Below, one piece after another: positions 1 to 7,986 of a stretch of 7,986 nucleotides of DNA. The translations under genes were made by a program, and so were the position numbers. The notes beneath the pieces are model-generated. The model saw only the letters and a list, made by a program, of their open reading frames with translations, had not been told where the DNA came from and did no database searches. Within the stretch, counting starts at the first letter, position 1, and each line of letters opens with the position of its first letter. The stretch lies in IMG/VR virus record IMGVR_UViG_2645727640_000024; one strand, written 5' to 3'. The DNA comes from a virus. Its lineage: Duplodnaviria > Heunggongvirae > Uroviricota > Caudoviricetes.

Positions 1-992
1 CGCTCAGGAAAGAATCATCGCTCAGTGCATTCACATTTGATGGTCCTTATCGCCTGACCGGGCATGACCTGCTGGACAATATGTACTGTGCTGATAACGG
101 ACGGTGGTATGAAACCCCGGTGGACTGGTACGGTCTGGCAAGAGCAGCCCGGCAAACGTCCTGGCATCAGTCTGCGCTTTACTTTAAGCGCAATGTATTA
201 CTCGGTTGCTACATCCCGCACCCGCTGCTTTCCCGGCAGGATTTCTCGGCGCTGGCGCTGGACTGGTTTGTGTTCGGTAACGCATTCCTTGAGCTTAGAA
301 GCAATATGCTCGGCGAACCGCTTAAATTACGGCACGCCCTGGCGAAATACATGCGACGCGGAAGCGATCTTGAATCATGGTGGTATGTGCAGGATGGCAA
401 GGACGCGTTCCAGTTTCGCCCTGGCAAAGTGTGCCACCTGATGAATCCGGATATTAACCAGGAAATCTACGGCATGCCGGAATATCTTGGCGCATTACTC
501 TCGGCCAGCCTTTCTCATTCGGCGGACATGTTCAGAAAACTGTACTACGACAACGGATCCCACGCCGGGTGCATCATCTACATCGGTGCAGCGCAGGTAA
601 ACCGCGAAAGCATGGACTCCCTGAAAGAAACGTTACAGGGCGCGCGTGGTGGTGGTGCGTTTAAAAACGTACTCATCCATGCGCCCAACGGGGGCAAAGA
701 AGGTGTGCAAATTTTGCCGTTCCAGCAGATCACTGCAAAGGATGAGTTCATGAATGTTAAGGCGGCATCCCGTGATGATGTGCTGGCTGCGCACCGCGTT
801 CCGCCGCAACTGATGGGGGCGATGCCGGGCGAAAAAAGTGCGTTTGGTGATGTGGAGAAGACCGCGCGGGTTTACGCAATTAACGAGCTGATGCCCGTCA
901 TGGAGGCCATGAAGCACATCAATGACTGGCTTGGCGAAGAGGTGATCCGCTTTAACCCTTACGCACTGCTAGATACCCAGCCCACATCCTGA
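1..992 (+). CDS. Q: Phage portal protein, P2 gpQ-like, 5'-partial (reading frame open to the window start; stop at 990-992)
   Basis: Frame starting at position 3 has no stop before the first ATG at 81, so the gene continues upstream of the window. Translation contains motifs I associate with P2-family portal proteins (ALAKYMRRG, HLMNPDINQEIYG, YYDNGSHAG, AAHRVPPQLMG, FGDVEKT). Recognition is from memory, not a search. Confidence 0.8.
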   Translation, partial: LRKESSLSAFTFDGPYRLTGHDLLDNMYCADNGRWYETPVDWYGLARAARQTSWHQSALYFKRNVLLGCYIPHPLLSRQDFSALALDWFVFGNAFLELRSNMLGEPLKLRHALAKYMRRGSDLESWWYVQDGKDAFQFRPGKVCHLMNPDINQEIYGMPEYLGALLSASLSHSADMFRKLYYDNGSHAGCIIYIGAAQVNRESMDSLKETLQGARGGGAFKNVLIHAPNGGKEGVQILPFQQITAKDEFMNVKAASRDDVLAAHRVPPQLMGAMPGEKSAFGDVEKTARVYAINELMPVMEAMKHINDWLGEEVIRFNPYALLDTQPTS

Positions 993-1019
993 CGCGCTTC
1001 GCTTGTCTGCTGCTTCGCC

Positions 1020-1042
1020 GGGGCATAAAAAATTTATGCCCC
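1020..1042 (+). terminator. Perfect hairpin just downstream of the portal stop (GGGGCATAAA / AAA loop / TTTATGCCCC); possible terminator or protein-binding dyad
   Basis: 10-bp perfect inverted repeat with a 3-nt loop, 28 bp after the portal stop codon. No U-tract follows on either strand, so it is not a canonical intrinsic terminator. Confidence 0.25.
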
Positions 1043-1318
1043 GACTCTCCAGCTCCTGTATCAATCAGATAATTTCACGACGCTTTTCTGCTTATTGTCA
1101 TCATCGGCGGTCAGACTCTTACGCAATCCCACCGCGTTGACTGCATGTTCTCGCCGCCTCAGTGCGATTTTGACGGCCTTATCTGCCACCCATCAAATCA
1201 AAAGCCCTCACGTCTTTTTCACGCTCAGCGTGAGAAATACAGCCATTCTGTTGTGTCGCTGCGACATCGTTCAGGGGATGCTATTTACCCCCTGAAACGC
1301 GGGCTGTTCCCCCGTCAC

Positions 1319-1372
1319 CTGCGCGCAGAAAAAACGCGTTTTTTTGTGCACGTACGGATCCTTGACGGATCC
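1319..1372. repeat. Cluster of overlapping perfect palindromes: CTGCGCGCAG, A6-CGCG-T6, GTGCAC, CGTACG, GGATCC twice (ACGGATCC direct repeat, 11-bp period)
   Basis: Read directly: 1319-1328 CTGCGCGCAG; 1329-1344 AAAAAACGCGTTTTTT; 1346-1351 GTGCAC; 1351-1356 CGTACG; 1356-1361 and 1367-1372 GGATCC. TGTGCA-type motifs recur at 1345-1350, 1417-1422, 1427-1432 and 1437-1442. Confidence 0.5.
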
Positions 1373-1443
1373 AGCCACCACGCGGGCCGGAAGTACAAAA
1401 AGTCGTTCAAAAAAATTGTGCAAACTTGTGCACTATCGTGCAA

Positions 1444-1469
1444 ACAAAAAAAGCGCCTTATCGGCGCTT
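1444..1469 (-). terminator. Rho-independent terminator on the - strand (stem AAGCGCC/GGCGCTT, 5-nt loop, followed on the - strand by TTTTTTTGTTTG)
   Basis: Minus-strand reading: GAAGCGCCGATAAGGCGC then a U-tract of 7. It sits 11 bp downstream of the stop of the 1478..1747 (-) ORF. Confidence 0.6.
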
Positions 1470-1477
1470 CAAAAGTA

Positions 1478-1747
1478 TCAATTGTTGCTGTTTATTAATC
1501 GCCAACCACGAACATATGCTTCATAGGCATCTCTGTGCCTTACAGTTCCAGCCTGGCTAAACGGAATGTTAGCTAAAACTAAATCATTCTGAGCCATAGC
1601 GCGTCCTTCAAGCGCATCTTTTATGCCTAGCTCAAAAGCACAGGCAGCGCATTTGTGCCGACCTTCTTGTCCTTGATATTCAGGGAGAGACAGAAATGTT
1701 GGATTATAACGATGAGGGTTCTTGCAAATACCTGTTTTAGCCCGCAC
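1478..1747 (-). CDS. Hypothetical protein (89 aa with GTG start; alternative internal ATG start at 1597 giving 39 aa)
   Basis: ORF with GTG start preceded by GAGGT 7 nt upstream; ends 11 bp before a canonical - strand terminator. Composition is protein-like, but I recognise no family. Coding status is uncertain. Confidence 0.3.
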   Translation of the reverse strand: MRAKTGICKNPHRYNPTFLSLPEYQGQEGRHKCAACAFELGIKDALEGRAMAQNDLVLANIPFSQAGTVRHRDAYEAYVRGWRLINSNN

Positions 1748-1768
1748 TTTATTTACCTCATAGGAAAA

Positions 1769-1849
1769 ATATGCGTGCCTTTACAGAGGTGCGTGTAAGC
1801 AATAAAATATACGACGCACATTTTGATTTACTTCGGAAGGCACGCATAT
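1769..1849. repeat. 13-bp perfect inverted repeat (ATATGCGTGCCTT at 1769-1781 / AAGGCACGCATAT at 1837-1849) separated by 55 bp; inner GTGCGT/ACGCAC inverted pair at 1789-1794 / 1814-1819
   Basis: Read directly. Both arms contain ATG-CGT-GCC, so each strand has an ATG-initiated short ORF beginning MRAF. Confidence 0.6.
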
Positions 1850-1876
1850 CAGGTTAAGTGAGTCCGACCGAGTTTT

Positions 1877-1910
1877 ACGCCCCAATAGTTGCTGCTATTG
1901 GGGCGTTTTG
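1877..1910 (+). terminator. Intrinsic-terminator-like hairpin on the + strand (12-bp stem ACGCCCCAATAG / CTATTGGGGCGT, loop TTGCTG, then TTTTG)
   Basis: Perfect 12-bp stem followed by T4 on the + strand; on the - strand the hairpin is followed by AAAACT, so it is orientation-specific. It lies 20 nt after the stop of the candidate 28-codon + ORF (1771..1857). Confidence 0.45.
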
Positions 1911-1955
1911 CATGGACAATGCCGCGCAATTATCTTGTCGCTCACAATGCGAACG

Positions 1956-1983
1956 ATCTTACAAAAAGGCACATTACTGTCAA
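1956..1983 (-). promoter_or_regulatory. Candidate sigma70-type promoter on the - strand: -35 TTGACA (1978-1983), 16-bp spacer, -10 TAAGAT (1956-1961)
   Basis: Perfect -35 hexamer with a 4/6 -10 at correct spacing. It would drive leftward transcription through the structured leader into the 1478..1747 ORF and the 1444-1469 terminator. Confidence 0.3.
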
Positions 1984-1998
1984 GATAATTGATCGTTT

Positions 1999-2043
1999 TA
2001 ATCGATAGATAATAGACAATCTATTTGTTTAACAGATCGATTA
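1999..2043. promoter_or_regulatory. Operator-like dyad symmetry: outer arms TAATCGAT (1999-2006) / ATCGATTA (2036-2043) and central palindrome AATAGA-CAA-TCTATT (2011-2025)
   Basis: Read directly. AT-rich, located immediately upstream (relative to the - strand) of the candidate promoter and about 70 bp downstream of the parR-like stop. Confidence 0.3.
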
Positions 2044-2111
2044 TTGAAGTAAGTGTGCCAAATGGAATGATACTGTCTCTATAAACGTGAGCATTTTTCG
2101 CGCAGATGCTT

Positions 2112-2423
2112 TTACTCAGGAAATAACGCCCGGATATTCCCAGCCATCTGGCTGGTTATCTTAGCCACTGGTGCAGACTGTGCTTCAAACTTTTTTGAGC
2201 TGATTTGTGTCACAGGTAACATCTCATCATCAGCCCATGCGGCCAGTCGGTAAGCCTCTGCCGGATTCGTCTTCAGAAGTGCCAGCCCGGCCAGAAAAGC
2301 CACGCGTTGGCCGCTTTTGCGGGCTTCTGGTGTAAGGCTGTCCAGCCAGGCGCATGCTTCTCCTTCGTTCTTGACGGCGGCGGGCTTCAGATAGAAACTT
2401 ATCCGTCTGGTTGGTGTCGTCAT
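2112..2423 (-). CDS. parR: ParR-like small partition adaptor / DNA-binding protein (103 aa)
   Basis: ATG at 2423 lies 4 nt after the parM-like TAA stop and 7 nt after an AAGGAG Shine-Dalgarno. The track ORF starts earlier at a TTG inside parM and is probably not the real start. N-terminal region resembles plasmid R1 ParR as I recall it (RRxIxFxLxP, LxAGLAL, C-terminal LFPE). Confidence 0.65.
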   Translation of the reverse strand: MTTPTRRISFYLKPAAVKNEGEACAWLDSLTPEARKSGQRVAFLAGLALLKTNPAEAYRLAAWADDEMLPVTQISSKKFEAQSAPVAKITSQMAGNIRALFPE

Positions 2424-2427
2424 TGGT

Positions 2428-3387
2428 TTACTCCTTGTCCATTGCGTACAGCCCATTAACCAGAGCAAACTGTGGCACCCCGTCCGCGATGAAAGTCGCA
2501 TTAACTCCGCAGGCTTCGCGGATAGCGGGTGCCACAATCTCCGCCCCGCCACCGACAACCATCACCCGCCCGTAACCCGAAAAAACCGCCAGCGCGCGGA
2601 TCACGCGTTGTTTCAGTGTTTCTTCCTTTTCACGAATAACCGCCATCAGGCTGGCGTAATGCGCGTCATTGTGGATGTGCTGGCGCAGCCAGGCTTCATT
2701 ATGGCGATGTTCGATAATGGTATTGGCGATGTGGTGACTGGTGCGCATACCGTTAGTGGCCATCACCGACAGTACGGCATCGGCCATAAGAGAAACGCCT
2801 ACGTGTGGATCGCAAAACACCTGGCTGATACCTGCCAGTTGCCCCTGAACCTTTGCCACATCCAGCGTGGTTCCGCCCAAATCCACAATCAGCAGGGATT
2901 CAAACGGACTCATGTCAGCCAGTGCTTTAAAGCCAGCCGGAATGGATTCAGGCATAACCCGTACGTTACGGATAGTGAATGCTTCGCCGTTCTGGTACTC
3001 CACCGGGCGCATGACGTTCGCTTTTTTGCGGTTGATGTTGGCCATGTCCGGCTGTGCGTTTGTGTCGAAATATTCGCTCAGTGGCAGGGTAACAACCACA
3101 TCCACTTCCTGTGGCGTGATGTCTGATTTGACCAGCGCGTGATGAATGGCAATGACATTCACATCGCTGTACTGGTATTGCGTGTCGGTCGTCTGGACAA
3201 AGCGATCGCTGACCGGATCAAAACCATAGCGCACGCCATCAAGCATGTAGTTAGCAGGCTGCGAGCCACCGAACGGCGCAGACCATTCCGACTTGAAGCT
3301 GTTCGGGCTGATGGCGTTGCGGCGTTCGCCGTTCTCAGTCCATGCCAGCTTGATGTTGGTGGAGCCGTCGTCGATGTAAATTTTCAT
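2428..3387 (-). CDS. parM: ParM/StbA-family actin-like ATPase (319 aa)
   Basis: Actin-fold motifs shared with R1 ParM (R100 StbA): N-terminal IDDGSTNIKL (phosphate 1), LLIVDLGGTTLD (phosphate 2), VVGGGAE (adenosine), plus QYSDVNV, VMPESIPAG, LVNGLY. AAGGA 9 nt upstream of the ATG. Confidence 0.88.
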   Translation of the reverse strand: MKIYIDDGSTNIKLAWTENGERRNAISPNSFKSEWSAPFGGSQPANYMLDGVRYGFDPVSDRFVQTTDTQYQYSDVNVIAIHHALVKSDITPQEVDVVVTLPLSEYFDTNAQPDMANINRKKANVMRPVEYQNGEAFTIRNVRVMPESIPAGFKALADMSPFESLLIVDLGGTTLDVAKVQGQLAGISQVFCDPHVGVSLMADAVLSVMATNGMRTSHHIANTIIEHRHNEAWLRQHIHNDAHYASLMAVIREKEETLKQRVIRALAVFSGYGRVMVVGGGAEIVAPAIREACGVNATFIADGVPQFALVNGLYAMDKE

Positions 3388-3418
3388 GTCGGTTTTCCTT
3401 ATGTTGATTAATTAATCG

Positions 3419-3530
3419 TTTACGGGATTCTGAAATCCCGTTTTTGCCTGTTTTGTGCGCGCTTCATATATCGCTGCGCGTTTTTTGCTCATTTACGGGA
3501 TTCGTGAGTCCCGTTTCTGTCTGTTTTTTG
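3419..3530. repeat. Two imperfect 39-bp direct repeats (3419-3457 and 3492-3530), each an 8-bp-stem hairpin (ACGGGATT ... AnTCCCGT) followed by a T-rich tract
   Basis: Copy A TTTACGGGATTCTGAAATCCCGTTTTTGCCTGTTTTGTG; copy B TTTACGGGATTCGTGAGTCCCGTTTCTGTCTGTTTTTTG. Stems are conserved while loops differ. Copy A lies between the A stop and the parM start; copy B lies inside the last codons of the A ORF. Confidence 0.6.
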
Positions 3531-6304
3531 TTTCCACTGGTCAGGCCACCCCGCAGCAGGTCTGCTTTGCGGCTGGCGCGTTCAGTGGTTTCACTGATTC
3601 TCTGTGCGTGCTCTGCGTCGCGGATGGCGCGCAGCATGTCAGAAAGCACGGTAACGGGTGTTTTCATGGTGTTCTGGTCCTGCTGAAGTGTGGATGCCAG
3701 GCGTGCGGCGGCTTCAGGGTCTGATGCCCCCAGCTGTGCCAGATAGCTGGCGACCGGGTTATGGCGGATCTCCGTGCTGCTTACGCCATGATTACGGCTC
3801 AGACGCTGCCAGAGCTGCGTGATTCGGCTGTCCGGGCGGGTATCCGGTTTGCGTACAATTTCAAATCCCTGCGGTGCAATGATGCTGCCGTCAACGTACA
3901 GACTGCCGCCCCGTAACAGGTGCTGCATCTGTTGTTCACCGATATGCAGGCCGAGAGATTCAGCAGACTCCCGCCATTCTTTAGCGAGTAACTCGTGGTT
4001 ATCAGGCAAAGGCCGCTGCTGTTTGCGGCTCTGTGTCCAGTTCTGCATTTCATCGCTGCTGTTTTTTGCCTGTTTGTCACGAAGCGAACGCATCAGCGCC
4101 CGGCGTTCGTGCCGTTTCAGTGAGCGCATCCATTCATTTACTTCAACGCCGTCAGGAAGCTGCGGCCACGGTGCTGGCCGTTCTTCCGGCTGTTCTGTCC
4201 CGTTGTTGCCTGTTTCCTGTACACGGGGACAGTTATTGCCACGAGTCCAAGGGGCGGCAGGGCCGCCCTGAAGGTCAAAACCATTTTCGCGGGCGCTGTC
4301 TTCCGCTTCCGGTTTACGTCTTACCAGCTTCCAGTTATCCGGATGCGTGCACACACGGGAGGATTCCCCGATGAATGGCGACCAGATCCCGTAAATCTGT
4401 ACACTCTGTTCGCCGTAATCGTTCAGCTCATCTGCGAGGTCGTAGGCTGTGCGAATCAGGTAGTCCTTGCGCGGAACAAGTACGCCACCCTGTTTTTCAA
4501 TGTAGGTGGCAAAACATCCGGCATCAGCGGCAGCGAGTACCGCATCCATTGCATCATCCTTCAGCCGTTGTGGGCCTTCCGGGTTGCGTGCCATCTGGCT
4601 GGCAAGGCGGCGGAGTTCACGCCATACCTGACGGGAGGGGATGCCAAAGAACTGGAACTGGCGGACCCGGTGAAGGCGTGCCCAGCCGATGGCGCGTTCC
4701 ACGCTCTCGGCCATTGATTTTCCGGTTTCGTGGTCAACGCGTGGCTTGCCCGTTTTCGGGTCGATGCCATCCACGGCGCGGCTGTCCAGGTTCTTTCCGA
4801 TGTAGGTGGCGATGTAGCTGGTTGGCGTGCCTTTTGAGCCGTCGACATACTCCACCTTAAAGCGCGGAGTAATATCATTGCCCAGCTCGTGGCGGTCTTC
4901 CTGAATGGCAATATCGCGGGTGTGGGACACAATGGTGTCGATTTCTTCCGGATGAGCAAAGACCATCATATGCCAGTGCACGGTGCCGTCATGGTGAGGC
5001 TCCACCGTGCGGATGCCATACCAGCGCAGGCCGTCGCGGTTCAGTTTCTTGCGGACCGCCGCAAAAAACGTGTTAACCAGGTAATCGCTGGAGTCGCGCA
5101 TGGTGGCCCCGTTCCATTTGGGATTCGGATGACCGTTCTCTGTTGTGGCGTGGTATTTTGACGGGCAGGTGACAGTCAGAAACACCGCTCTGTCGCCACG
5201 GGCTTCGGCCAGAAGTTCCAGCCCCTTCATGGTGGCCATCATTTCTGCCTTACGGTGAATCGGGTTACTTACTCCCGCGTAATACACTGTCTCGAGATCA
5301 ATCGTGAACCCGTCTTCGTTTTCCAGCATGAAACTTTTCAGGAAATCGCGTGTTTTCTCGCGCTGTGCGCGAAACTCGCTTAACGCGTCCTGGCTCAGAT
5401 AGGGTGATGTTTTTCTGGAAACCAGACAGGCGGCGCGGAGTTGTTCTTCTCTCCACTCGCAACGTAACAGCCACAGTTTGCGTTTCCACCATTCCGCACA
5501 GGTCAGGCGAAGGATTGCGCCCGGCAGCAGCTCCGTGTCCGGTTCATTCCTCCGGTCTTTGTCTGTTGTCAGAGCGTCATAATGTGGAGGCATAGCGTGC
5601 AGGTGTAACGCCATGCGGGCCAGCATCTGATACGCCTTCAGCGTTACATCCATGGTCAGCTCGCCATCGGTCGCGCCAAAGCCATCGCAGAGTTTTTCAA
5701 AAGTGCCACTGAACATCGCCGCCGTCATGGTGGCCAGCGTCTGTATCTGGTGTTTGTTGAGCTGCGGCAGGTAAAGCAAATCGTCCAGGCGTTCGCGTCC
5801 GGCAAGGGAGCGATAGCCCGGTGTCAGCCAGCGGCTGTCGGTGCGGTCCAGACGTTCGAATATTTTGCGCAGGGTTCCGCGCGCGTAGCGTTCAGCCTGC
5901 CAGCTCTTTTTGCCTTTCTGACGATCGGCTTCCTGCTTCTTGCGCAGAAAAGAGAGGTGGCGGCTCAGAGGTTCACGCAGATAAACGGGAAGCACCTTCA
6001 GTGTGGCAAAAGCACGGGCCACCGGGTCTTGTTCTGTTGCCTGACGCTTGCTGATGATGCTTTGTGCCAGCTTTTCACGCTGTCCGGCTTCCTCAAGGGA
6101 TGCCATGAGTTTTTTACCCACGGTGGATTGTGCGAAAAAGGCTTCTTCCTTCGCTTCCTGTTCTTCCTGTGCCCTTTTGTTTGCCTCAAGGTAGTAACGG
6201 ATGGCGCGTTGCAGGTCGGTTTCAGTTTCCTGCCTGCGCTCCGTAAATCTGGCCGGATCAATGGCTGGCCGTGGTTCATTCCAGCTCCATGCAAACGCAC
6301 TCAT
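3464..6304 (-). CDS. A: Rolling-circle replication initiator endonuclease, P2 gpA-like (946 aa from the ATG at 6304; the track ORF begins at an upstream GTG at 6331)
   Basis: HUH-type motifs: HWHMMVF (metal-binding His pair), catalytic tyrosine pair YIATYIGKNLD, FLTVTCPSKYH. The ATG at 6304 overlaps the upstream gene stop (ATGA). The ORF is long and reads through repeat copy B at its 3' end. Confidence 0.9.
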   Translation of the reverse strand: MSAFAWSWNEPRPAIDPARFTERRQETETDLQRAIRYYLEANKRAQEEQEAKEEAFFAQSTVGKKLMASLEEAGQREKLAQSIISKRQATEQDPVARAFATLKVLPVYLREPLSRHLSFLRKKQEADRQKGKKSWQAERYARGTLRKIFERLDRTDSRWLTPGYRSLAGRERLDDLLYLPQLNKHQIQTLATMTAAMFSGTFEKLCDGFGATDGELTMDVTLKAYQMLARMALHLHAMPPHYDALTTDKDRRNEPDTELLPGAILRLTCAEWWKRKLWLLRCEWREEQLRAACLVSRKTSPYLSQDALSEFRAQREKTRDFLKSFMLENEDGFTIDLETVYYAGVSNPIHRKAEMMATMKGLELLAEARGDRAVFLTVTCPSKYHATTENGHPNPKWNGATMRDSSDYLVNTFFAAVRKKLNRDGLRWYGIRTVEPHHDGTVHWHMMVFAHPEEIDTIVSHTRDIAIQEDRHELGNDITPRFKVEYVDGSKGTPTSYIATYIGKNLDSRAVDGIDPKTGKPRVDHETGKSMAESVERAIGWARLHRVRQFQFFGIPSRQVWRELRRLASQMARNPEGPQRLKDDAMDAVLAAADAGCFATYIEKQGGVLVPRKDYLIRTAYDLADELNDYGEQSVQIYGIWSPFIGESSRVCTHPDNWKLVRRKPEAEDSARENGFDLQGGPAAPWTRGNNCPRVQETGNNGTEQPEERPAPWPQLPDGVEVNEWMRSLKRHERRALMRSLRDKQAKNSSDEMQNWTQSRKQQRPLPDNHELLAKEWRESAESLGLHIGEQQMQHLLRGGSLYVDGSIIAPQGFEIVRKPDTRPDSRITQLWQRLSRNHGVSSTEIRHNPVASYLAQLGASDPEAAARLASTLQQDQNTMKTPVTVLSDMLRAIRDAEHAQRISETTERASRKADLLRGGLTSGNKKQTETGLTNPVNEQKTRSDI

Positions 6305-6690
6305 GGCTGGTATCCCGTCACGCGCTGCCACTCCTGTGAGAAGAGGGCGGAAAGGCGGTTAAATTCAGCGGAGTATTCACTCAGCGAGGCACACCCGCCA
6401 GCAGTGCGATGCGCCAGCATTGCCGCAAATATGGAGGCCGGGGAGTCGTAATACGCCAGCAGTGATTCGCCGTGTGGTGTCAGGCAGTGCAACGCCAGCC
6501 CGTGTGGTGTGAAGTCCACGCGGTAGCAGTCGTCTACTGTGAAATAAAGGGTGTCTGCATTCTCCGGTTTTGTGGTGCGTGCTCTGTTGTCACGACCACG
6601 GATGTAGAGATCAAATAATCCCTGAAGAACGGGAGCCAGACGGGTGTCCTGTGTGCGCACCCATCTTGTGAAGTCATGAGCGTCAATCAT
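6301..6690 (-). CDS. Hypothetical early-operon protein (129 aa) immediately upstream of A
   Basis: ATG start; its stop overlaps the A start (ATGA). Position corresponds to the small ORFs preceding A in P2-type early operons. No family recognised. Confidence 0.6.
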   Translation of the reverse strand: MIDAHDFTRWVRTQDTRLAPVLQGLFDLYIRGRDNRARTTKPENADTLYFTVDDCYRVDFTPHGLALHCLTPHGESLLAYYDSPASIFAAMLAHRTAGGCASLSEYSAEFNRLSALFSQEWQRVTGYQP

Positions 6691-6798
6691 GCTGCAATTC
6701 TCTTTACTACAGATGTGCGAAGGCTTCCTGCCAAAAAACTCAGAAGCGGTCGGTTACAGGAATTGACGTTCTACGAGTAGTTATTGCTGGCTTGAGGT

Positions 6799-7017
6799 TC
6801 ATTTCTGTTTAATTCCGTGCATGCTGTAGAAGAAATCAAAAGTGTTATCTATGCGTATCATGAGCTCACGCTGCATCGCTTCTGGTGTTTCTGGTTCGCC
6901 TGGTGAGCCAACTCCCGCGAAGAAATCACCGATCTCGCTTTGAATAAGTGCCTTTAGCGTTGCTGAGGAACTCAGGTGTGTTCGGTGATGTCTGCGAGTG
7001 ATTCTTCTCCTACTCAT
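6799..7017 (-). CDS. Hypothetical small early protein (72 aa)
   Basis: ATG at 7017 overlaps the stop of the upstream ORF (ATGA at 7014-7017). Confidence 0.55.
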   Translation of the reverse strand: MSRRRITRRHHRTHLSSSATLKALIQSEIGDFFAGVGSPGEPETPEAMQRELMIRIDNTFDFFYSMHGIKQK

Positions 7018-7667: not shown

Positions 7668-7986
7668 TTAATCTGCTTTCTGAATTTCAGCTTCTGAATC
7701 CATGCAGATAATCTCGATATAGGGTTCATCGCCATTAACCTGACGAGATTTTTCGGCTTCGCTAATTATTTCGCGAATGATCTGGTACGGAAGCTCTACA
7801 GTCAGGCGTGTACCGTTCAGATAAACGTAGGTAGCTGCGTTTTTTTCAGATGGAACTACTCCGTCAATAGCTGATGCGCGTAATAACAGTTCACCGCGAA
7901 GGTGATGCTGCCAACTTACTGATTTAGTGTATGATGGTGTTTTTGAGGTGCTCCAGTGGCTTCTGTTTCTATCAGCTGTCCCTCCT
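7668..7986 (-). CDS. Hypothetical early protein, 5'-partial (open to the window end; C-terminus ...PYIEIICMDSEAEIQKAD)
   Basis: My own translation of the - strand from 7985 down to the TAA at 7668-7670 has no stop (105 codons). Not in the ORF track because the start lies outside the window. Confidence 0.5.
   Translation of the reverse strand, partial: GGTADRNRSHWSTSKTPSYTKSVSWQHHLRGELLLRASAIDGVVPSEKNAATYVYLNGTRLTVELPYQIIREIISEAEKSRQVNGDEPYIEIICMDSEAEIQKAD

Follow-up and report, generated by a model that had tools for sequence, protein, structure and literature searches.

The locus at positions 993-3463 of the 7,986-nucleotide stretch of DNA analyzed here (the window; IMG/VR virus record IMGVR_UViG_2645727640_000024) lies next to cos in a P88-like prophage, between the portal gene Q and the replication gene A, and is best read as an accessory region of three units, one of which encodes the actin-like segregation ATPase ParM and its centromere-binding adaptor ParR. 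We favor, at a probability of about 55%, the interpretation that this parM-parR pair (parMR) acts on excised or infecting phage circles alongside their replication, and not in stable plasmid maintenance or defense. What we observe directly, and what carries this interpretation, are the gene identities, the intact motifs of both proteins, purifying selection on both genes, a pair of repeats that is unique to this spot and co-inherited with parMR, the chromosomal location of the module, and the breakpoints at which the units are swapped. The original prediction, made from the sequence without database searches, had viewed the interval as a single block of non-canonical cargo in which an exclusion or maintenance function might be sought.

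Identity and breakpoints of the locus

The window as a whole is 92-97% identical in nucleotide sequence to P88-like phages of the genus Xuanwuvirus (family Peduoviridae), among them P88, Chuche, PhiR44_2, 520873, 503458 and PhiSM of Citrobacter; it is a P88-like prophage of the P2 family. The interval 993-3463 is 100% identical to part of a chromosomal prophage in Escherichia coli SCU-105 that has an integrase and adjoins yecA. Its flanks are, as predicted, homologues of Q and A. On the plus strand, the open reading frame (ORF) ending at 992, which is the 3' part of a portal gene that runs off the left end of the window (1-992; Pfam Phage_portal, 7.8e-18), is 47% identical to P2 gpQ (E = 8e-103), and the homologous ORF is labelled portal in the annotations of P88, Chuche and 520873. 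On the minus strand, the GpA-type replication endonuclease (3464-6304 from the RefSeq start, giving 946 amino acids [aa], or 3464-6331; Phage_GPA, 9.7e-130) shows 31% identity to P2 A (E = 2e-69). The portal gene and A point toward each other across the cos region, an arrangement shared with P2. In P2, the corresponding interval from the 3' end of A to cos/Q holds orf91, tin and old, which share no homology with the cargo here: None of the three was found in the window by tblastn, again in line with the prediction. P2 old and tin, moreover, have their own promoter and run in the opposite direction, whereas parMR in the window looks like a continuation of the A operon.

Alignment to P2-like prophages, the check that had been proposed, yielded the breakpoints between core and cargo. 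Blastn comparisons with P88, Chuche and 520873 return conserved blocks from position 1 to 1442/1457 and again from exactly 2112, the parR stop codon; similarity on the left ends at 1457 in P88, at 1442 in Chuche and at 1445 in E. coli AST46. By these alignments, the supposed single block resolves into three units of different evolutionary behavior: a packaging-side segment (993-1457), a slot (1458-2111) and a parR-parM module (2112-3563), with frequent exchange apparently confined to 1458-2111. The P88-like prophage of AST46 has the same portal/cos side up to 1445 and the same A from 3564; in place of parMR, the interval between those points encodes a DNA adenine methylase and an AAA ATPase. 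Because the AST46 breakpoints fall at 1445 and 3564, the larger replaceable unit would be 1446-3563, and parMR itself would be replaceable on a longer time scale. This unit takes in the last 33 codons of A together with two 42-nt repeats described below. Those 33 codons are part of the exchangeable parMR module and differ in the relative that lacks parMR. The nested breakpoints also supply clean cloning boundaries, at the parR stop codon and at a shared terminator next to cos.

The description of the cargo as non-canonical did not survive a wider comparison. Each of the 14 phage records (10 phages) whose A gene is of this type has parM, and parMR occurs in 1,304 of 5,426 complete E. coli genomes (24%); counted as genomes holding at least 80% of the segment, parM occurs in 1,279 and A in 1,356 of the E. 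coli genomes. The pair is the commonest single occupant of the A-Q locus and, on these alignments, near-core in P88-like phages. Roughly one complete E. coli genome in four harbors, within a phage that integrates, a segregation pair of the actin-like type. The idea was to be abandoned if the cargo proved to be conserved core content of a well-characterized family with a known role; near-core content is what was found, and a known role was not, in that the literature on P88, PhiSM and CP-933T yielded no tested role or expression of parMR, and functional work on the pair is absent from the papers on P88 and PhiSM.

The presence of ParM and ParR in the P2 A-Q slot is already known, from the literature since 2022 and from genome annotations for longer, and the locus does not add a novel type of system. 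In 2022, Rousset et al. (Cell Host Microbe) analyzed the gpA-gpQ hotspot in 18,150 E. coli loci and found a putative partition system at this locus in about a quarter of P2-like phages (PMC9122126). Their Table S5A lists the triple WP_000708312 + WP_000211267 + WP_001594304 as 'StbA + Plasmid_stab_B + hypothetical', an arrangement that they did not report testing (PMC9122126). The same three accessions are annotated at the 100%-identical SCU-105 locus, such that locus, flanking genes and all three proteins correspond to those of the window and the object itself is not different. Rousset et al. treat A-Q as one hotspot; added here are the breakpoints at 1445/1457, 2112 and 3564, a candidate cis site, and the anatomy of a cassette encoding an 89-aa protein. 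A 2026 Nucleic Acids Research paper describes GpA-GpQ as the main P2 defense hotspot (PMC13586616).

The parM and parR genes

The parM/parR-like pair noticed in the sequence is genuine. The parM (stbA) gene occupies 2428-3387 on the minus strand and encodes a 319-aa actin-like segregation ATPase (StbA_N, 9.7e-81; ParM C-terminal domain, 3e-68) that matches R1 ParM over its full length (PDB 1mwk; E = 7.7e-92), with all of its nucleotide-binding motifs aligned (DDGSTNIKL, PESIPAG, DLGGTTLD and GGGAE), which together cover the phosphate-1, phosphate-2, catalytic Glu and adenosine motifs. Directly downstream, after a gap of 4 bp, parR (stbB; 2112-2423, minus strand) encodes a 103-aa centromere-binding adaptor (Plasmid_stab_B, 2.4e-23; phrog_2515, 'partition protein'). 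A 148-aa ORF starting at TTG was rejected as parR, being an over-extension that overlaps parM and an artefact of ORF calling. The N-terminal RRISFYLKP of ParR is conserved with plasmid and D6 ParRs and identical across Xuanwuvirus variants, and its C-terminal NIRALFPE corresponds to an N-x3-LFP(E/D) tail common to plasmid and D6 ParRs. From established R1 work, we take the N-terminus to be the DNA-binding end and the C-terminal tail the ParM-binding end. The ribbon-helix-helix fold is presumed for ParR, which had no match among PDB sequences. Both genes are under purifying selection (dN/dS of 0.07-0.18 in parM and 0.25-0.38 in parR).

The start codon of parM lies 76 bp from the A stop codon, and a consensus scan detected neither a sigma-70-like promoter nor a minus-strand terminator in this gap. 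A belongs to the C-repressed early operon with cox, the gene order running from cox to A; because no promoter or terminator was found in the gap, parMR looks like a predicted continuation of this early operon. With the ParMRC system of plasmid R1, the module shares the full-length ParM alignment and a ParR of the StbB/ParR Pfam family directly after parM. It differs from R1 ParMRC in residing in an integrated phage instead of a low-copy plasmid, in having a 76-bp upstream gap with no iteron array and no recognizable promoter, and in being apparently appended to a phage replication operon.

Degraded P88-like elements also occur. In E. coli O157:H7 SS52, a P88-like remnant (locus L011, 2207-3555) has an IS3-family pseudogene abutting parR and has lost cos, the portal gene and the cassette side; its ParR variant is 53% identical to the window ParR, apart from an identical N-terminus. 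About one third of E. coli matches show this remnant pattern, with similarity beginning at window position 2369.

A candidate ParR site and the action of parMR

Two 42-nt repeats lie upstream of parM. The proximal copy (3416-3457) contains the palindrome ACGGGATT-N4-AATCCCGT and is a candidate ParR site of the parC kind; the distal copy (3489-3530), 73 bp away and 81% identical, falls within the final codons of A. Beyond the two copies upstream of parM, the palindrome is found nowhere in the window (0.03 expected) or in the 35.8-kb P88 genome, and both repeats are lost along with parMR in AST46, where similarity resumes only at 3564. Because they are unique to this spot and lost together with parMR, the pair is the best candidate for the site to which ParR would bind.

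Under the interpretation that we favor, parM and parR would be read through from A in the early (lytic) operon and would be made only once infection or induction has left the phage genome as a replicating circle outside the chromosome. ParR would load onto the palindromes of the excised or infecting circle, and ParM-ATP filaments, captured by the C-terminal tails of ParR, would push sister circles apart as in R1; phage genomes would in this way be distributed or positioned before integration or lysis. Four parts of this model are inferred: that ParR binds the repeats, that parMR is co-transcribed with A, when the pair is made, and how the phage benefits.

A precedent for such a role exists in Corynebacterium glutamicum, where prophage CGP3 depends on its actin-like AlpC/AlpA system for efficient replication and transport of viral DNA (PMC4446434, PMC5539076). 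CGP3 AlpC/AlpA/alpS combines a filament protein, a DNA-binding adaptor and a cis site in an integrated prophage and acts on excised viral DNA (PMC4446434, PMC5539076), and it offers the best functional analogy for the P88-type module; AlpC is a distant actin-like protein of a Gram-positive host, and the likeness drawn here is a functional one. If parMR does position lytic or pre-integration phage DNA, the idea developed for CGP3 AlpAC would extend to the commonest P2-family coliphages.

Several observations weigh against this interpretation. The apparent absence of a promoter at parMR comes from a consensus scan only. Because a P88-like prophage without parMR exists (AST46), parMR is dispensable at least for prophage persistence. 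Neither an R1-type iteron array upstream of parM nor a canonical parC was found: Plasmid and D6 relatives have upstream regions of 240-270 bp with several iterons, whereas parMR here has just two repeats, placed in the 76-bp gap plus the tail of A. T-runs follow both palindromes on the plus strand, where both were scored as terminators, and the palindromes could be insulators instead of ParR sites. An O157 variant has two non-compensated changes in the proximal stem, although these argue against a conserved RNA structure and are compatible with a protein site.

If the 42-nt repeats were not a centromere, they could be tandem plus-strand terminators or insulators that block antisense transcription into A, stopping transcripts from the late P-Q operon or from plus-strand cassettes before they reach that gene. 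Both repeats have the terminator-like form on the plus strand, an 8-bp stem and then a T-rich tail, and some relatives, such as Chuche, have plus-strand cassette genes aimed at parR and parM. However, the repeats stand beyond parM and not directly after the cassette, which would leave parR and parM still facing antisense transcription; they are inherited and lost with parMR and not with A; and their palindromic core is conserved, as for a protein site, while the O157 changes weaken the stem without compensation. We regard such a terminator or insulator role as possible but unlikely.

Plasmid maintenance

That parMR keeps P2-like phages as low-copy plasmids, instead of or besides integration, was put forward as speculation by Rousset et al. 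(PMC9122126). A complete ParM/ParR pair under purifying selection fits this proposal, as does the occurrence of StbA/StbB in D6, a P1-like plasmid-prophage whose StbA is 47% identical to the window ParM and whose record notes similarity to the StbA of P88; D6 is the only other phage in a 50,697-record collection with a homologue of this ParM. Unlike the window prophage, D6 is a 91-kb extrachromosomal prophage and has 266 bp with several iterons upstream of stbA. The sole support for an episomal state among P88-like phages is pZ1323PEC0009-2 (PLSDB NZ_CP148288.1), deposited as an E. coli plasmid: It is a circular 34,461-bp whole P88-like genome with integrase, parMR and a different cassette, and it could be a true episome or simply excised or induced phage DNA. 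The module is found in six further PLSDB records, in at least some cases within large plasmids.

Residence on a low-copy extrachromosomal replicon, a trait of type II partition systems, is not what we see: In complete E. coli genomes, 1,442 of the 1,444 places at which parM occurs are chromosomal, within integrase-bearing prophages, the integrase being kept in all examined copies. PhiSM, a relative of the window prophage, integrates site-specifically (PMC6456863). The scan picked up no promoter for parMR, and A shares the C-repressed early operon with cox, so that on established P2 biology a phage not committed to the lytic cycle could hardly replicate stably. Because A and parMR appear to share the lytic early operon, because the phage integrates and because virtually all copies are chromosomal, we consider stable plasmid maintenance improbable and return to action on excised or infecting circles as the preferred account of parMR.

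The exchangeable cassette

The slot itself, 1458-2111, is hypervariable and in the window holds a 654-bp low-GC cassette of the moron type, which is swapped for others in P88 and Chuche. Its GC content is 41.4%, dropping to 33.6% in 1990-2111, as against 52.3% for the window. By blastn, the sequences that P88 and Chuche carry between the conserved blocks are unrelated to it: The P88 cassette encodes a ClpX-zinc-finger-like protein and a 112-aa protein. That of Chuche (3096-3902, plus strand) encodes a 268-aa protein matching phrog_3732 and the PADLOC phage-defense candidate PDC-M04A (2.6e-35), and its gene is read toward parR, in the antisense direction relative to the par operon. Across complete E. 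coli genomes, the conserved flanks are separated by spans of at least seven different lengths, and the proposal of a P2-type A-Q accessory locus with variable content is to this extent borne out. The cassette with the 89-aa gene is present also in phages 520873 and 503458, and the available copies are 98-100% identical. Because the 166 genomes that have this cassette equal in number those carrying at least 80% of 993-3463, it appears always to occur in this locus context.

About 1.1 kb of the locus had been described as AT-rich, highly structured and poor in ORFs. The structure is confirmed, with 12 terminator-like hairpins in 900-3700 against 3.1 +/- 2.0 in shuffled sequences; the AT-richness applies to 1458-2111 only; and the lack of ORFs does not hold, since this part contains the 89-aa gene.

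Read on the minus strand, the cassette begins with an AT-rich stretch containing small palindromes (2111-1990), followed by a predicted sigma-70-like promoter of the cargo gene (1956-1983; TTGACA, 16-nt spacer, TAAGAT; 10 of 12 consensus matches) and a predicted structured 5' leader of the cargo mRNA of about 200 nt (1748-1949; minimum free energy -71.4 kcal/mol, z = -4.46). None of 200 shuffles was as stable as the leader fold (1735-1950, minus strand), which contains a 13-bp perfect long-range stem pairing 1769-1781 with 1837-1849. The cargo gene starts with GTG at 1747, preceded by a Shine-Dalgarno sequence, GAGG. A strong predicted intrinsic terminator (1450-1470, minus strand; GAAGCGCCGATAAGGCGCTTT then TTTTGTTTGC) lies at the left recombination junction and would end both the cassette and the early operon. 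An Rfam scan of the whole window gave just two matches, both of them sub-threshold and at a terminator hairpin. With its predicted promoter and terminator, its foreign GC content and its precise replacement in relatives, the cassette has the makeup of a horizontally exchanged one-gene moron.

The strand opposite the leader holds a candidate antisense small RNA (1780-1912, plus strand). A promoter-like site at 1780-1808 (TTTACA, 17-nt spacer, TAAAAT; also 10 of 12 matches) precedes a hairpin at 1877-1906 that has a 12-bp perfect stem and is followed by TTTTG; the fold of this antisense region has z = -4.05, and its Rfam matches are antisense RNAs at sub-threshold values only (E = 0.65-0.92). 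Speculatively, site and hairpin could yield an antisense RNA predicted to be about 95 nt long.

The predicted transcript start of the cassette (1926-1948, minus strand) reads CATTGTGAGCGACAAGATAATTG, whose first 10-11 bases equal the left half of the lac operator O1, ATTGTGAGCG. Relative to the promoter-like site, this O1-like half is placed near +1, the position that O1 has in lac, and the full operator is not present; the resemblance is probably a coincidence.

The 89-aa cargo protein and the case for defense

The single gene of the cassette (1478-1747, minus strand; phrog_3941, 9e-49) encodes an 89-aa protein consisting of a tandemly duplicated Cys/His-rich domain of unknown function. A word-indexed homologue search returned only two near-identical clusters, and an exhaustive HMMER search was needed to recover the family, which has 173 representatives and conserves C8, H12, R30, H31, C33, C36, Q65, R70 and H71. 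Its two halves are homologous (hhalign E = 7.7e-18), with a repeat unit of roughly Lp-x-sQ-gG-x2-RHK-x4-AY-x-GY-x-G. An alignment-based AlphaFold model reached a pLDDT of 92.5 and had no significant structural neighbor in PDB or BFVD; Pfam, NCBIfam and PADLOC gave no match to the protein. It belongs to an undescribed family of duplicated Cys/His domains, one with repeated links to restriction and defense enzymes.

Ribosome modulation factor (RMF, PF04957) was rejected as an identity for this protein after recurrent weak signals, all of them sub-threshold. PF04957 was matched by 13 of 53 family members (best E = 2e-4), hhalign against E. coli RMF gave a probability of 4.5%, and the top Foldseek match of the model in PDB was RMF (2jrm), with an E of 1.7 and a TM score of 0.35.

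Elsewhere, the domain is fused to HNH_2, NOV_C, DndB and WYL domains, and a genomic-context search with the single 89-aa protein returned four loci. In all three of the Bacteroidales loci examined, which come from metagenome-assembled genomes, the domain is encoded between a DpnII-family endonuclease and an N6/N4 DNA methylase. These loci also have a D12 (Dam-type) methylase upstream of the domain gene, which is an unannotated fourth gene of DpnII-type restriction-modification operons; the domain (L008, 6007-6846; L009, 1930-2769; L010, 5956-6267) there either begins a 279-aa protein or makes up a 103-aa protein of its own. In a lambdoid prophage of Providencia, a homologue fills the Q-holin moron slot as a separate gene. 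These contexts point to a nucleic-acid-binding accessory of DNA-targeting systems.

One may then ask whether the cargo, parMR or the cassette, serves in exclusion, in defense of the lysogen or in countering host restriction. The locus is a proven defense hotspot (PMC9122126), and the cassette has a strong promoter-like site of its own and foreign GC content; the equivalent Chuche cassette matches PDC-M04A, and the fusions, the restriction-modification operons and the Providencia moron slot all lie on the same side of the argument. On the other side, the 89-aa protein has neither an enzymatic domain nor a fold match, and guilt by association cannot separate defense from counter-defense or regulation. 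For parMR there is no support at all, PADLOC matching none of the three window proteins, ParM and ParR included, and the phage-exclusion role suggested for the pair is one that we set aside. Taken over the whole cargo, a role in exclusion, defense or anti-defense is doubtful.

For the cassette taken by itself, a more specific proposal is that 1458-2111 is a self-contained single-gene immunity or counter-immunity module, possibly controlled by the antisense RNA, whose 89-aa product, as the free-standing version of a putative nucleic-acid-binding domain, would modulate DNA-targeting defense in the lysogen; the protein might, for example, occupy or mark nucleic acid recognized by the types of enzyme to which its relatives are fused or adjacent. 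We put this forward tentatively and think it rather unlikely to be correct as it stands.

The packaging side and a candidate cos

The conserved non-coding segment at 993-1457 stays with the portal gene and is not cargo. It is 92-96% identical in all P88-like phages, is found also in the prophage that lacks parMR, and has a GC content of 51.2%, compared with 52.3% for the window. A perfect 11-bp inverted repeat at 1019-1043 (plus strand) forms a hairpin 27 nt past the stop codon of the portal gene, matching in position the P2 terminator tQ, which is annotated directly after Q; the hairpin has no T-run and was not picked up by the terminator scan.

A candidate cos cleavage region lies at about 1378-1398, where GC-rich CCACGCGGGCCGGAAGTAC is accompanied by flanking A/T runs and GTGCA repeats. 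Its position is taken from the ends of one linear record, LR595891.1 (P88_4B11), both of which map to window 1397|1398, beside CCACGCGGGCCGGAAGTAC. The only part conserved in Enterobacter phage phiT5282H is window 1298-1448, at 75%. The 19-nt cos of P2 is absent from the window when searched as a 19-mer with up to three mismatches, and blastn-short against the P2 cos junction returned 8-9-mers only.

Other features of the window

The last 87 bases of the window (7900-7986) are the end of an IS1 element, 100% identical to the IS1 of P1 and other records. Similarity to P88 ends at 7900, within a gp05-like early gene, and this prophage copy accordingly differs from P88, on sequence comparison, by an IS1 inserted into the early operon on the upstream side of A and parMR, and also by its cassette, P88 and Chuche having others between parR and cos; in the portal gene, cos side, parR, parM and A, window and Xuanwuvirus phages otherwise share their gene order along with the 92-97% identity. 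A polar effect of the insertion is possible, and the prophage may then be incapable of lytic growth. At the corresponding spot of the SCU-105 locus, no IS is annotated.

The A protein, at 946-955 aa, is longer than the 761 aa of its P2 counterpart, and its Phage_GPA domain covers residues 194-518 only. Upstream of A, a second variable region occupies 5984-7013 of the early operon: Alignment with P88 and 520873 is lost at about 5984/6009 and picked up again at 7014. P88 has Ead/Ea22-like, membrane and lipoprotein/serine-protease genes in this region, and the window has different small ORFs of 129, 72 and 84 aa. The 129-aa ORF (6301-6690, minus strand) belongs to phrog_3237, of unknown function, and RefSeq labels it 'inositol monophosphatase' at SCU-105; because Pfam and NCBIfam give no match, this label looks like a mis-annotation. 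The same ORF shares ATGA with the RefSeq start of A, an overlap suggestive of translational coupling between the two genes.

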